Positions 18,159-32,000 of a stretch of 32,000 bases of DNA are shown one piece after another (position 1 is the stretch's first letter; each line of letters opens with the position of its first letter). Source of the DNA: an uncultured Actinomycetota bacterium (GTDB taxonomy: Bacteria; Actinomycetota; Actinomycetes; Streptosporangiales; Streptosporangiaceae); contig CAVQKF010000017.1 of NCBI GenBank assembly GCA_963712955.1, positions 37,739 to 69,738 on the forward strand, read 5' to 3'. The notes beneath the pieces are model-generated. The model was not told where the DNA came from. It worked only from the letters and a program-made list of their open reading frames with translations, and made no database searches. The translations under genes and the position numbers were made by a program.

Positions 18159-18620
18159 TGACGCTGACCGCACACCCGGCGCACACGCGCCGTGCGCTCC
18201 CGACGGTCTCGCCCTGCCCAATCTCAGCGGGTCCGATCCTGGCGACCCGCCCGATCTTGGCCCACCGGATCTCGGCCGGCTGCGAGCCGCTGCCGAGCGC
18301 GCCGAACTGGCAGACGCCGTAGCCAGCCTGACCGACGCCAACGGCTACCGTCTGCCTGATTCCGACCCGTTGGCACCGCTGGCGCGCGACATCGCCCGCA
18401 GCCTGGTCGAGGCGGGCTTCACCCTTCACCACTGCGCCCGGCGCACCCCCTCTACCGGCTCGGAGGGGTATGCCTGCTGCCCGTCCCCGTGCACTACGAC
18501 CATGGCCACGGCGGTGTCGCGGTGTCGTGGACCACGCACGACCTTCTCTTGCGCGACTGGGACCGGTACGGCGCCTACCGCGATGCCCATGGTCACTGGG
18601 CGCCTTTGGCGGCATGCTCG
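18159..18620 (+). pseudogene. hypothetical protein, apparently frame-disrupted; boundaries uncertain
   Basis: High-GC3 coding signal moves between three plus-strand frames: MTLTAHPAHTRRALP... / ...ADAVASLTDANGYRLPDSDPLAPLARDIARSLVEAGFTLHHC / ...[48 protein letters not shown]. No family recognised. The 3' end is unresolved and converges on ispG. Confidence 0.25.
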
Positions 18621-19735
18621 GCGAGCAGTAGAGCCTCCTCCACAAGGGCCTGGACGATCTGTGATTCGGGCACGGTCTTGACCACCTTGCCGCGCACGAA
18701 GATCTGCCCCTTGCCGTTGCCTGAGGCGACCCCGAGATCTGCTTCCCGGGCTTCACCGGGGCCGTTGACCACGCAGCCCATGACCGCGACGCGCAGCGGC
18801 AGCGGAAAGCCGTCGAGGGCTGCGGTGACCTGGTCGGCGAGCTTGTAAACCTCGACCTGGGCGCGACCGCATGACGGGCAGGACACGATCTCCAGCCGCC
18901 GCGGGCGGAGCGCCAGCGACTCGAGGATCTGCTGGCCGGCCTTCACCTCCTCCACGGGCGGGGCGGACAGGGAAACGCGGATGGTGTCGCCGATGCCCTC
19001 CGCCAGCAGGACGCCGAACGCGACGGCGGATTTGATGGTGCCCTGGAGGGATGGGCCGGCCTCGGTGACCCCGAGGTGCAGCGGGTAGTCGCATGCGGCG
19101 GCGAGCTGCCGGTACGCGGCAATCACGACCAGCGGGTCATGATGCTTCACGGAGATCTTGATGTCGGTGAAACCGTGCTCTTCGAAGAGCGAGCATTCCC
19201 GTAGCGCAGACTCCACGAGGGCCTCCGGCGTGGCCCTGCCGTACTTAGCCAGGAGGCGGGCATCGAGCGACCCGGCGTTGACCCCGATCCGGATCGGCAC
19301 CCGCGCCTCGGATGCTGCCCTGGCGATCTCGGCCACTCTGTCATCGAAAGCCTTGATGTTGCCGGGGTTTACCCGTACGCCGGCGCAGCCGGCCCGGATG
19401 GCGGCAAATACGTAACGGGGCTGGAAGTGAATGTCGGCGATCACCGGGATCGGTGACTTTGCCGCGATCACCGGCAGCGCGTCAGCGTCGGCCTGGCTGG
19501 GGACCGCGACCCGCACGATCTGGCAGCCCGCTGCCGTCAGCTCAGCGATCTGCCGCAAGGTCGCTTCTGTGTCCGCCGTCTGCGTCGTGGTCATCGACTG
19601 CACGGACACCGGAGCACCGCCACCAACTGGCACCGCCTTCTCGCCGTCGCCGACAGTGATCCGCCGGGAGATCCGTCGAGTTGCCAAGGGCTCCCCGGAC
19701 CTGGCCGCAGGCATACCGAGCCTGGTGGTGGTCAT
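18593..19735 (-). CDS. ispG: 4-hydroxy-3-methylbut-2-en-1-yl diphosphate synthase (flavodoxin), MEP pathway
   Basis: Full-length 380-aa GcpE/IspG: VQSMTTT...[45 protein letters not shown], the SCPSCGR and [10 protein letters not shown] cluster-binding Cys motifs. Its ATG overlaps the stop of the dxs remnant (ATGA). Confidence 0.95.
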
Positions 19736-20469
19736 AGCGTCCCCGCCTCTGGTGCCTTCTGGCGGTAAGCCAGCACGGCTGCGGTGATCCCGGCGCTATC
19801 GAGCCGGTGCTTGGCCAACATCGCGGCACGGTCGCCGTGCGGGTAGAAGCAGCCGGGCAGCCCAAGACCATGAACGTGGGCGGCGGCTCCAGCCCTGGTG
19901 AGCGCCTCGCTGATCCGGCCGCCGAGTCCACCGGTGACCGGATGCCCCTTACCCTTCGCGGTAACTGTGTGCACAGGCACAGGGCGATGCTGTGCGGCCG
20001 CGCTGCGCAGGGCGTGCTCAAGCGACCCGATGTGGTGCCCGTCAACCGGTCCGAGGTAGGCGATACCGAGGTTCTCGAACAAGCACTTGGCGCGGTGGCC
20101 GAAGGCGTGACCCTGACCAGCGCCGTTCGCGCGCAGCCCGCCGAGATGGGCCGCCACGGCGCCGGCGGTGGGATCGTAGGAGCGGCTGTTGTCGTTGAGC
20201 ACAATGATCACCTGGCGCTGCGAGCCCGCGATGTTGTCGAGTGCTTCCCAGCACATGCCACCGGTGAGCGCCCCGTCGCCAACCACCGCGATCACCCGGC
20301 GCCGCGCCAGGCCCCGCAGACCGAACGCCTTGGCCAGGCCGTCGGCGTACGAGAGGGCCGTGGAAGCGTGAGAATTTTCGATCCAGTCGTGATCCGACTC
20401 GGCCCGGCAGCCGCGCGGGCCCCCGTTCGGGCAGGCGACGTCAAGGGTCATGCCTGGTATGCCTTCCAC
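19732..20469 (-). pseudogene. dxs: 1-deoxy-D-xylulose-5-phosphate synthase remnant (N-terminal truncation plus internal in-frame deletions)
   Basis: 245 codons where Dxs normally has ~620-660. The retained part is the TPP/PP-domain core ([78 protein letters not shown]). It joins directly to the extreme C-terminus (GGLG..ISEAL......V...GLP..F..HG....MLA...LD..GI). The ~100 N-terminal aa and the whole pyrimidine-binding domain are absent. Only ~750 bp exist between ispG and the P450 gene. Confidence 0.75.
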
Positions 20470-31228: not shown

Positions 31229-31256
31229 AATGTGCGCGGCGTGTGAACCCCCGCGT

Positions 31257-32000
31257 TCAGATGGAGGTTTTCAGGCCGCTTCCCTCCCTCGTATTGTCGT
31301 GGTTGATGGCGTATTTGCGGCGGCCGATGCCAGCGCGGTGATCGGTTCGGCCGACTGCAGCGCCGGGGTTGCGTCCGGTGAAAACGAGATGCTGGGCGAC
31401 GCTTCGCAGCTTTTCGCAAGTCTCGGCATACTCGCGGGCCGGGGACGAGCTGCCGACGATGCCGGCGCCAGCCTGTAGCCAGGGGCCGGCGCCCTCGTCG
31501 ATCAGCGCCCTTAGGACCAGCGCGGCGTCGAGTGTTCCGTCCGCCGAGGCCATGAACACAGCACCGCCGTACAGTCCGCGCGGCCGACGCTCGAGGCGGC
31601 TGATCGTCTCAGGCACGCTGCCTGGGCACCCCGGACACGGTGATGGCCGGGAATAGGGCGCAGAACGCGTCCCACCTCGATAGCGACGGGCGAAGCCTGC
31701 CGCCCAGGGTCGAGCCGAGGTGCTGGACGCTGCCGCGTTCTCTTACCCTCATGAAGTCGTCGAGCGGCGCCGCCGGCTCACACACCAGCCGGAGATCCTC
31801 CAGCCCGGCACGTACGGAGATGGCGTGCTCGTAAACCTCCTTCGGATCTCTCAGAAACCCGGTGCCCGCAGCGCGCGGTCCTGGGCAGGCCCCGTGCCGA
31901 AGGCGCGCGTTCCGGCCAGCGGCTCGCTGAGCACTGTTCCATCGGCGGTCACGCCGATCACGATCTCCGGGCTGAACCCGAGCGCGTGCGTCGAGCCGAG
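31257..32000 (-). pseudogene. salicylate synthase (MbtI/Irp9-type chorismate-binding enzyme), 5'-partial at the window edge, two frameshifts
   Basis: Three minus-strand frames together read [37 protein letters not shown] / [22 protein letters not shown]...[21 protein letters not shown]...[13 protein letters not shown] / ETISRLERRPRGLYGGAVFMASADGTLDAALVLRA...AGAGIVGSSSPAREYAETCEKL. This matches my recollection of MbtI closely. Junctions are at ~31850-31865 and ~31617-31625. Confidence 0.7.

Follow-up and report, generated by a model that had tools for sequence, protein, structure and literature searches.

Do aryl-acid genes of the kind used by nonribosomal peptide synthetases (NRPSs), when they lie interleaved with terpenoid genes on a bacterial contig, serve a single pathway together with them, or do the two sets belong to two neighbours? 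This question is raised by one end of a 32,000-nucleotide (nt) stretch of DNA from an uncultured Actinomycetota bacterium of the family Streptosporangiaceae (GenBank assembly GCA_963712955.1, contig CAVQKF010000017.1, positions 37,739 to 69,738). In what follows, the whole stretch is called the window; all positions are those of the window, and gene families were assigned by Pfam and NCBIfam scans. We consider it probable, with some reserve, that the segment from position 20483 to beyond 32000 is one orphan hybrid terpenoid-salicylate cluster, working along the pathway proposed below and decaying in this genome. Gene order in related loci carries much of the argument.

Organization of the locus

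The window has a G+C content of ~68%. From position 18593 to its edge, the following features are found.

18593-19735, minus strand: ispG (4-hydroxy-3-methylbut-2-enyl diphosphate synthase), intact; GcpE 463 bits, NF001540 505.8 bits against a cutoff of 345
19732-20490, minus strand: dxs remnant (DXS fragment 19732-20469); 130 bits against a dxs equivalog cutoff of 466
20483-21733, minus strand: cytochrome P450 (P450a), last conserved gene of the minus-strand operon; Pfam p450
21766-21951, minus strand: MbtH-like protein of 61 amino acids (aa); PF03621 46 bits against a cutoff of 27
21992-23452, minus strand: free-standing condensation-superfamily protein of the epimerization-domain type (the C-like protein), motif SHLVADG
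23455-24474, minus strand: oxidoreductase of the ketopantoate-reductase (ApbA/PanE) family; ApbA and ApbA_C, TIGR00745 170.6 bits against a cutoff of 141
24487-25722, minus strand: cytochrome P450 (P450b), first gene of the minus-strand operon; Pfam p450
26207-27493, plus strand: group A flavin monooxygenase (FMO), putative polyprenyl epoxidase; FAD_binding_3 125 bits, SE 31.7 bits against a cutoff of 20.1
27490-29175, plus strand: class II terpene cyclase of 561 aa resembling squalene-hopene cyclase (SHC); SQHop_cyclase_N and _C
29171-29509, no strand: 339-bp insertion resembling a miniature inverted-repeat transposable element (MITE) or an insertion sequence (IS) remnant, with perfect 21-nt terminal inverted repeats
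29495-31228, minus strand: salicylate-type aryl acid-AMP ligase of 577 aa; TIGR02275 510 bits, under the cutoff of 723
31257-32000, minus strand, running off the window edge: MbtI-like salicylate synthase of the chorismate-binding family, C-terminal ~250 codons in the window, probable pseudogene

The Pfam and NCBIfam scans place all eleven genes in the families given to them by an earlier interpretation made from the letters alone (the sequence-only reading). Three transcription units can be distinguished: a minus-strand unit P450b-ApbA-C-MbtH-P450a(-dxs'-ispG) with intergenic gaps of 2-40 nt, a divergent unit FMO-cyclase, and a convergent unit MbtI-like-ligase. The stop codon of the FMO gene overlaps the start of the cyclase gene (GTGA, 27490-27493), and the same 4-nt overlap is obtained in a separate gene call on the independent contig L035, in keeping with the translational coupling that had been proposed. 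Gene content likewise bears out the remark that aryl-acid/NRPS-type genes are present on both flanks of the terpene genes.

Conservation of the cluster in related loci

Part of the window recurs in an independent assembly, since the Logan contig L035 (run ERR11523645) is 100% identical to positions 26079-29337 (3,259 bp). Four independent metagenomic relatives were found in addition. The first is represented by contigs L031 and L036, counted as one lineage because they are 98.4% identical to each other. These contigs share 86-90% nt identity with positions 20459-31729 and have the gene order of the window, that is, MbtI-like-ligase, cyclase-FMO and P450-ApbA-C-MbtH-P450, followed by an ABC transporter where the window has dxs'-ispG. 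The second, an 8,669-bp contig of JGI 3300043313 (ligase 61% and cyclase 63% identical), carries Met_asp_mut_E-like, Chorismate_bind and ligase genes next to a cyclase-FMO unit. In L038 (C-like protein 48% identical), the order is cyclase, then ApbA-C-MbtH-P450, then two P450s and the FMO. In L037 (C-like protein 43% identical), a cyclase-FMO unit stands beside P450-C-P450 genes with 4-nt overlaps, followed by a P450, a short-chain dehydrogenase/reductase, a polyprenyl synthase, a phosphopantetheinyl transferase (PPTase) and a sigma factor. It follows that the C-like gene belongs to the conserved genes of a terpene cluster family; in two lineages (L031/L036 and JGI 3300043313), the cyclase has the ligase and MbtI-like genes as direct neighbours. 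Comparison of the eight core genes with L031 reveals zero frame breaks and dN/dS values of 0.16-0.43, which shows that they are under purifying selection.

In this context, the idea that a salicylate siderophore cluster and a hopanoid-like terpene cluster are unrelated neighbours, interleaved by chance, can be weighed. Mycobactin-type siderophore loci typically contain MbtI, MbtA-like and MbtH-like genes, and the cluster is visible only in part. However, the interleaving is kept in the four independent relatives, down to 43% protein identity, and the C-like and MbtH-like genes lie within a P450 operon. The cyclase also fails the hopene-cyclase model, with 147.8 bits for TIGR01507 against a cutoff of 431.1, and stays below the cutoff of the squalene-cyclase model TIGR01787 (157.7 against 322.7 bits); no hpn-type genes occur in the window or in related loci. 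Membership of the cyclase/epoxidase pair in a conserved hopanoid operon, which the sequence-only reading had raised as a test of its own proposal, was rejected on these grounds. As for the siderophore side, the MbtI-like gene, the salicylate-type ligase and the MbtH-like protein do recall the mycobactin-type salicylate module (MbtI, MbtA, MbtH). Unlike mycobactin-type loci, the window shows in view no NRPS modules of the type heterocyclization (Cy) or condensation (C), adenylation (A) and thiolation (T), no polyketide synthase modules, no aryl carrier protein and no siderophore transport genes; its salicylate genes are embedded in terpene operons, and its MbtI-like gene is frameshifted. Aryl carrier and Cy/C-A-T assembly-line modules are absent from positions 17000-32000 and from the related loci alike. 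Synteny thus largely refutes a chance association, to which we give a very small residual probability. Because terpene loci conserve the C-like gene, and because two lineages have the salicylate genes directly beside the cyclase, two neighbours can be ruled out for practical purposes. One integrated cluster, as had been proposed, is strongly supported by synteny in L031/L036, L037, L038 and the JGI contig and by the place of the C-like and MbtH-like genes inside a P450-flanked operon.

How widespread is this arrangement? A cyclase query against genome contigs returned only relatives of at most 49% identity, in Chloroflexota and Planctomycetota metagenome-assembled genomes; a ligase query against metagenome contigs gave no close relative; and among plasmids, tblastn with the C-like protein matched nothing but NRPS domains, at 36% identity or less. 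The best named homologues of the window proteins are actinomycete, myxobacterial or Chloroflexota proteins with at most 55% identity. The cluster family is rare and uncharacterised, being represented so far only by metagenomic contigs of high-GC, probably actinomycete-like bacteria. In the literature, no characterised cluster was found that pairs a terpene cyclase with a salicylate synthase, an MbtH protein or a condensation domain. A Dactylosporangium locus (L042, Dactylosporangium sp. NPDC051541) was considered as a further relative and rejected, its gene content being different. At positions 8977-11662 of that locus, the closest named ligase homologue (55%) adjoins a gene whose product joins a PP-binding domain to an Rv2949c-like domain of the chorismate pyruvate-lyase family, and the cluster also holds a weak polyprenyl synthase match and a P450; it is an unrelated but unusual locus of aryl-acid/terpenoid appearance.

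A free-standing protein derived from an epimerization domain

The C-like protein had been described as a stand-alone C domain with the motif SHLVADG. Its superfamily, its stand-alone form and the motif stand; by sequence and predicted fold, it is of the epimerization (E) domain type. Its sequence scores 110-148 bits against solved E domains (PvdL-E2, BacC-E, TycB3-E, TycA-E, GrsA-E), as compared with 42 bits against the TycC C domain and 40.8 bits against SgcC5, and VibH is not among the matches. When an AlphaFold model of the protein (pLDDT 83, pTM 0.83) was used in a fold search, the 13 best PDB matches were all E domains (TM 0.71-0.79), SgcC5 following at rank 44 and the glycopeptide X domain at rank 48. 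The X domain was not found among the sequence matches.

In 5/5 orthologues, VRHGRA stands in place of EGHGRE, with the catalytic Glu replaced by Val and the second Glu by Ala; therefore, the established second catalytic residue of epimerases is lost. In the HHxxxDG region, neither the second His nor the Asp varies among orthologues of 43-82% identity or among NRPS domains. The window protein and its close relatives P0151 and P0122 (81-83% identical) read SHLVADG, and P0123 and P0124 read HHLVADA. Judging from sequence and model, the C-like protein is derived from an NRPS E domain, the epimerase Glu having been lost and the xHxxxD core retained. Like GrsA-E, TycA-E, TycB3-E and PvdL-E2, its best sequence and fold matches, it has kept the xHxxxD and HGR core. 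Unlike them, it stands alone with no fusion to a peptidyl carrier protein, lacks the Glu of EGHGRE, has Ser for the first His and carries a conserved N-terminal helix of ~27 aa (LADRIxRLSAxQRSALL) ahead of the domain. To see a docking element in this helix is speculation. The stand-alone form is rare, with 3 cases among the 150 best matches in a search of 1.84 billion representative proteins; the rest of these 150 belong to giant NRPSs as domains, with at most 37% identity.

SgcC5 (ester-forming, in C-1027) and VibH (amide-forming, in vibriobactin) are free-standing members of the superfamily that take an aryl or aminoacyl donor from a carrier and join it to a free small molecule as acceptor. 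The C-like protein resembles them in being a stand-alone member of the condensation superfamily and differs from them in its weak sequence similarity. Could it instead be a non-catalytic scaffold that, in the manner of the glycopeptide X domain, brings the P450s encoded on either side to an intermediate bound to a carrier? In every locus, the C-like gene has P450 genes on its flanks, stop and start codons overlapping in L037, and the E-domain motifs SHxxxDG and VRHGRA are degenerate. Against such a role, the second His and the Asp are invariant, as mentioned above, the X domain appears only at rank 48 of the fold search and in none of the sequence matches, and the C-like gene has a dN/dS of 0.33. 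A scaffold therefore seems highly improbable, and an enzymatic function is preferred.

The terpene genes

By its closest solved structure, the cyclase is SHC-like (104 bits), with a catalytic motif DTEDTAG where SHC has DVDDTA; on the independent contig L035, the protein is identical to that of the window. Homologues at 63% identity or more have D[TS]EDTAG, and those at 44-58% have the canonical DxDDTA. Motifs of the AtoE/Bra4 type, xxxE[ST]xE, or of the PlaT2 type, xxxD, occur only among homologues at 32-36% identity (e.g. VTLESAE, NILDSAN). The FMO gene adjoins the cyclase gene in L031, L036, L037, L033 and the JGI contig; in L038, the tailoring operon lies between them. Considering this conserved pairing, the coupling of the two genes and the modest SE-domain (squalene epoxidase) match, the FMO is taken to be a polyprenyl epoxidase.

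What would be its substrate? A dedicated polyprenyl diphosphate synthase is absent from the window and, among the relatives with the C-like gene, is seen only in the distant L037. The L037 enzyme has small residues ahead of its first DDxxD motif, and its best models are of the short-chain IdsA and geranylgeranyl diphosphate synthase types. This one distant relative suggests a polyprenyl substrate of C20 or longer rather than squalene. At positions 8873-10728 of L037, the polyprenyl synthase gene is directly followed, with a 1-nt overlap, by a gene for an Sfp/HetI-type PPTase. A carrier protein is thereby implied somewhere in the pathway, although none is visible in any locus.

Outside the subfamily of loci with the C-like gene, the nearest cyclase relatives adjoin UbiA and polyprenyl synthase genes (L032; Nocardia L033/L034). 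L032 has no FMO in view; in L033/L034, the FMO-cyclase pair is conserved. The latter locus (Nocardia sp. NPDC005825, GCA_040630175.1, 6653-19446) holds a P450, a polyprenyl synthase, UbiA, cyclase and FMO genes and then a complete mevalonate pathway; its cyclase is 44% identical to that of the window and has the canonical DTDDTA motif. This is apparently a different, uncharacterised meroterpenoid cluster.

Such neighbourhoods lend themselves to another explanation, in which salicylate would be the prenyl acceptor of a classical meroterpenoid route, an aromatic or UbiA prenyltransferase would lie out of view, and the ligase and the C-like protein would act later, on the carboxylate. The UbiA and polyprenyl synthase genes next to the nearest outside cyclases, as well as the four-gene core conserved in AtoE-like clusters, are in line with it. 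However, no UbiA or ABBA prenyltransferase is found in the ~16-kb composite locus (L031 + L036 + JGI), in the window, in L037 or in L038, and for UbiA the same holds for each of the five loci of the C-like subfamily (window open reading frames (ORFs), L031/L036, L037, L038 and the JGI contig). Direct prenylation of salicylate is accordingly considered improbable as compared with the hybrid pathway in which salicylate is joined by other means.

Salicylate supply and activation

The best solved match of the ligase is the salicylate-AMP ligase 5wm2 (442 bits), followed by DhbE (428 bits). Its substrate pocket reads HNFALGC, as compared with HNYPLSS in DhbE, with Phe and Cys at the positions that discriminate between salicylate and 2,3-dihydroxybenzoate (DHB); two pocket positions separate salicylate from DHB enzymes, as in DhbE, YbtE and MbtA. 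The pocket residues show a binding site of the salicylate type, and the assignment as an aryl-AMP ligase is upheld by both the match and the pocket (HNF...C). Relative to CahJ-type (5wm2) ligases and DhbE, the protein carries a Pro/Gly/Ser-rich insertion of ~30 aa at residues ~167-217. This insertion is partly missing in L031 (16 gap positions), and the JGI homologue P0155 is longer still (609 aa).

The MbtI-like gene has a different fate. Its family assignment as a salicylate synthase stands, with 230 bits for MbtI, 193 for Irp9 and 125 for TrpE, but the gene is frameshifted twice in this genome. Homology is spread over three segments, from frame 0 to frame 2 and back to frame 0, and the frame-corrected product aligns to MbtI 241-447 with no large gaps. 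The first frameshift is a 2-bp deletion relative to L031 (GCCTACGAGA to GCCTGAGA), which produces a TGA at ~31611; the second lies in CCGGGTTT, at ~31850. The frame-corrected dN/dS of 0.24 argues for a recent inactivation, and the gene is probably a recent pseudogene, as read from these frames. Sequencing or assembly error as the cause was considered less likely, since the ~10 kb of core genes contain 0 frame breaks and the 0.75 kb of the MbtI-like gene contain 2. One frameshift is moreover a 2-bp deletion outside any homopolymer, and the independent L035 assembly agrees at 100% over 26079-29337, a stretch outside the frameshift sites. Salicylate supply from the window's locus has thus probably been lost in this genome. 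In the JGI 3300043313 contig, the gene past the salicylate synthase encodes a 558-aa Met_asp_mut_E (glutamate mutase E-like) protein, a pointer to the genes that may follow beyond 32000 and to a possible building block of the 3-methylaspartate type.

The MbtH-like protein and a possible additional building block

MbtH-like proteins normally pair with amino-acid-activating A domains. The gene of the window (21766-21951, minus strand) was compared with those of L031 (1427-1612) and L038 (3583-3789). The best solved match of its product is PA2412 (57 bits). The first signature Trp, a residue of the A-domain-binding cleft in solved complexes, is changed to Leu, since the window has SILP, with Leu also in L031, where PA2412 and L038 have SIWP. 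With a dN/dS of 0.43, the gene has the highest value in the cluster. The reductase of the ApbA/PanE family scores 104-107 bits against solved ketopantoate reductases, and its gene adjoins the C-like gene in L031/L036 and L038. Of the two P450s, P450a shares 86.8% aa identity with its L031 orthologue, with no frame breaks and a dN/dS of 0.24, and P450b shares 90.3% identity with L031, with a dN/dS of 0.19.

From these genes arises the most serious competing proposal. An unseen A-T module, partner of the MbtH-like protein, would add an amino or hydroxy acid, which salicylate would cap, leading to a salicyl-aminoacyl or salicyl-hydroxyacyl terpenoid with no direct transfer of salicylate by the C-like enzyme. 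The extra unit could be a 2-hydroxy acid supplied through the ketopantoate-reductase-like enzyme, or 3-methylaspartate supplied through the glutamate-mutase-like enzyme of a relative. In favour of such a unit, three lineages show tight linkage of an MbtH-like gene with the C-like gene, ApbA-family enzymes share this linkage, a PPTase is present in L037, a Met_asp_mut_E-family gene adjoins the MbtI-like gene in the JGI contig, and NRPS genes have been seen near AtoE-like cyclase clusters (PMC11600129). On the other side, an A-T module is visible in 0/5 loci, L037 has retained the C-like gene without MbtH and ApbA, and in the lineage of the window the MbtH-like protein has Leu for its first cleft Trp. 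An additional unit is therefore held to be a possible but clearly less probable solution than direct acylation.

A proposed pathway

Considering the properties of the encoded proteins, the following route may be envisaged. The FMO would epoxidise the terminal double bond of a head-to-tail polyprenyl chain, probably at least C20, made by a synthase encoded outside the window. The coupled SHC-like class II cyclase, with its DxED motif, would open the epoxide and cyclise the chain to a hydroxylated polycycle. The two P450s and the ketopantoate-reductase-like enzyme would tailor the product. In parallel, the MbtI-like synthase would make salicylate, and the ligase would adenylate it, these activities being those expected from the families and from the salicylate-type pocket. 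Salicylate would then be loaded onto a carrier protein encoded out of view, from which it would serve as the donor for transfer. Such loading is proposed because of the PPTase in L037 and of the MbtH-like protein, which implies an NRPS-type partner. The C-like enzyme would most likely transfer the activated acyl group to a hydroxyl or an amine of the terpenoid; acylation either before or after cyclisation fits. It would thereby take the place that UbiA holds in clusters of the phenalinolactone/atolypene type, as the catalyst of the step joining the non-terpenoid part. In this genome, two frameshifts in the salicylate synthase, a deletion remnant of dxs and a MITE-like insertion mark the decay of the cluster.

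Salicylate transfer onto a terpenoid by the C-like enzyme is plausible by analogy, because the condensation domain of AstA esterifies aryl acids onto a cyclised terpenoid. In astellolide biosynthesis of Aspergillus oryzae, AstA is an A-T-C NRPS that attaches benzoate or 4-hydroxybenzoate to a drimane sesquiterpene alcohol and requires the holo-T domain (PMC5024094). The pathway proposed here resembles it in that an adenylated aryl acid and a condensation-superfamily catalyst would acylate a terpenoid of the class II cyclised type. It differs in that AstA is fungal and a single A-T-C polypeptide, whereas in the window the ligase and the C-like protein are separate, no T domain is visible and the catalyst is of the E subtype.

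Several observations weigh against the proposed pathway. The window shows neither a carrier protein nor an NRPS A-T module, and neither a polyprenyl synthase nor a prenyltransferase. The sequence-only reading had already noted the absence of a carrier protein and a prenyl synthase, and the present scans agree, as a six-frame motif scan of 17000-32000 found the carrier-protein serine motif in no credible ORF or T domain, and the larger window ORFs scanned with Pfam gave no polyprenyl_synt or UbiA match. The salicylate genes are documented in two relatives only, the other two contigs stopping at the cyclase. The FMO is by sequence a generic group A enzyme, nearest to aromatic hydroxylases of the PqsL/PgaE type (PqsL 87 bits, human squalene epoxidase 46). 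In the C-like protein of the window, the first His of HHxxxDG is Ser, and in distant orthologues the Gly is Ala. Finally, the MbtH-like protein hints at an additional building block beyond view. One way to account for the missing carrier is a ligase/C-domain pair that works independently of it, an option left open by the sequence-only reading. It is not favoured here, given that a PPTase stands beside the polyprenyl synthase of L037 and that the MbtH-like protein implies an adenylation partner. In a bolder version, the cluster would stand for a new class of bacterial acyl-meroterpenoid pathways, in which the E-derived enzyme replaces UbiA in joining salicylate to a polyprenyl chain or to the cyclised product, maybe from the adenylate or a CoA thioester without a dedicated carrier, with the MbtH-like protein maybe aiding the aryl-acid ligase instead of an amino-acid A domain. 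This version is doubtful in our opinion.

Relation to known terpenoid clusters

Brasilicardin and phenalinolactone, meroterpenoids made with epoxidase/class II cyclase pairs, are pharmacologically interesting. To our knowledge, all characterised meroterpenoid pathways with such pairs join their two halves by means of a UbiA prenyltransferase. The phenalinolactone/brasilicardin/atolypene/longestin family has four conserved core genes, for the cyclase, a flavin epoxidase, a UbiA prenyltransferase and a polyprenyl synthase (PMC11317874, PMC11600129), and in the pla and ato clusters prenylation, epoxidation and cyclisation follow a pathway-specific order (PMC11317874, PMC11600129). In the AtoE-like family, the cyclase motif is xxx(E/D)(T/S)xE, a single acidic residue replacing DxDDTxx (PMC11600129). 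NRPS genes close to some AtoE-like cyclase clusters were also remarked on, and the question of NRPS-terpene hybrids was raised and left unanswered (PMC11600129).

To what extent does the window fit this family? Among known systems, the closest are these clusters and that of tiancilactone, with their AtoE-like non-canonical class II meroterpenoid cyclases, also called epoxy-polyprenyl cyclases. The window shares with the phenalinolactone/atolypene type an FMO paired with a cyclase of ~560 aa resembling SHC or oxidosqualene cyclase, P450 tailoring genes, a non-terpenoid moiety and an actinomycete-type host. In contrast, it has neither UbiA nor polyprenyl synthase, UbiA being missing in all the relatives too; its cyclase motif, DTEDTAG, is near the canonical DxDD, positions 1, 3 and 4 being acidic and position 7 Gly; and it has instead an E-derived enzyme, an MbtH-like protein, a salicylate synthase and a salicyl-AMP ligase. 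Of the likeness to phenalinolactone and brasilicardin clusters put forward earlier, the epoxidase/class II cyclase pair remains, whereas the lack of UbiA and the cyclase motif set the locus apart. The epoxidase/class II cyclase logic would be the known part of the system, and the joining module, made of an aryl-AMP ligase and a free-standing E-derived enzyme, would be the new one. If true, the two halves would be joined by a different chemistry, and the epimerization-domain fold would gain a new function. The cluster family with the C-like gene would offer a compact test case for NRPS-terpene hybrids and is a good lead for genome mining. Because the salicylate synthase appears broken, the practical value of the present genome is lower, and the intact L031/L036 lineage is the better target.

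Rearrangement and decay at the borders of the cluster

The sequence-only reading had counted ispG and the dxs remnant as a supply of precursors through the methylerythritol phosphate pathway. Both genes are real and ispG is intact, but dxs is dead and the pair is not conserved in the nearest relative. Residues 24-184 of the dxs remnant align to residues 98-~260 of Mycobacterium tuberculosis DXS, and residues ~185-240 to the C-terminus, ~520-575. Thus ~97 N-terminal and ~260 internal codons are gone, and the native C-terminus is kept, with a stop codon overlapping the ispG start. Homology to L031/L036 ends at the 3' end of P450a, at ~20459-20483, where L036 has the ABC transporter. For this reason, dxs'-ispG is regarded as a product of rearrangement, with no demonstrated part in the cluster, and the breakpoint at the P450a stop indicates a rearrangement scar.

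Between the convergent cyclase and ligase genes, the 339-bp insertion (29171-29509) is bounded by perfect 21-nt inverted repeats (GCTAAAGATCTTTAATGGTGG), for which 0 matches are expected by chance, and is missing from the 88%-identical L031; its left half is confirmed by L035. An inner ORF gives weak matches to transposase-type helix-turn-helix (HTH) domains. The element looks like a MITE or like what is left of an insertion sequence carrying a transposase-type HTH. Both neighbouring genes take their stop codons and their last residues from it, the cyclase ending in ..QNAS* and the ligase in ..GNHTMAAKDL*.

On the other side of ispG, the genes 5' of 18593 have nothing to do with secondary metabolism; they include PadR, WD40 and PQQ-propeller genes, and several of them are fragments. 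Rfam and tRNA scans of the window found nothing. Within positions 1-18500, split or fragmentary genes include Amidohydro_1 in two frames (6285-7674), IS240 DDE fragments (15517-15976), ABC2_membrane (11842-12438), PepX_C (1686-2093) and Lipoprotein_15 repeats in overlapping frames (13781-15390), so that this region of the contig looks rich in pseudogenes.

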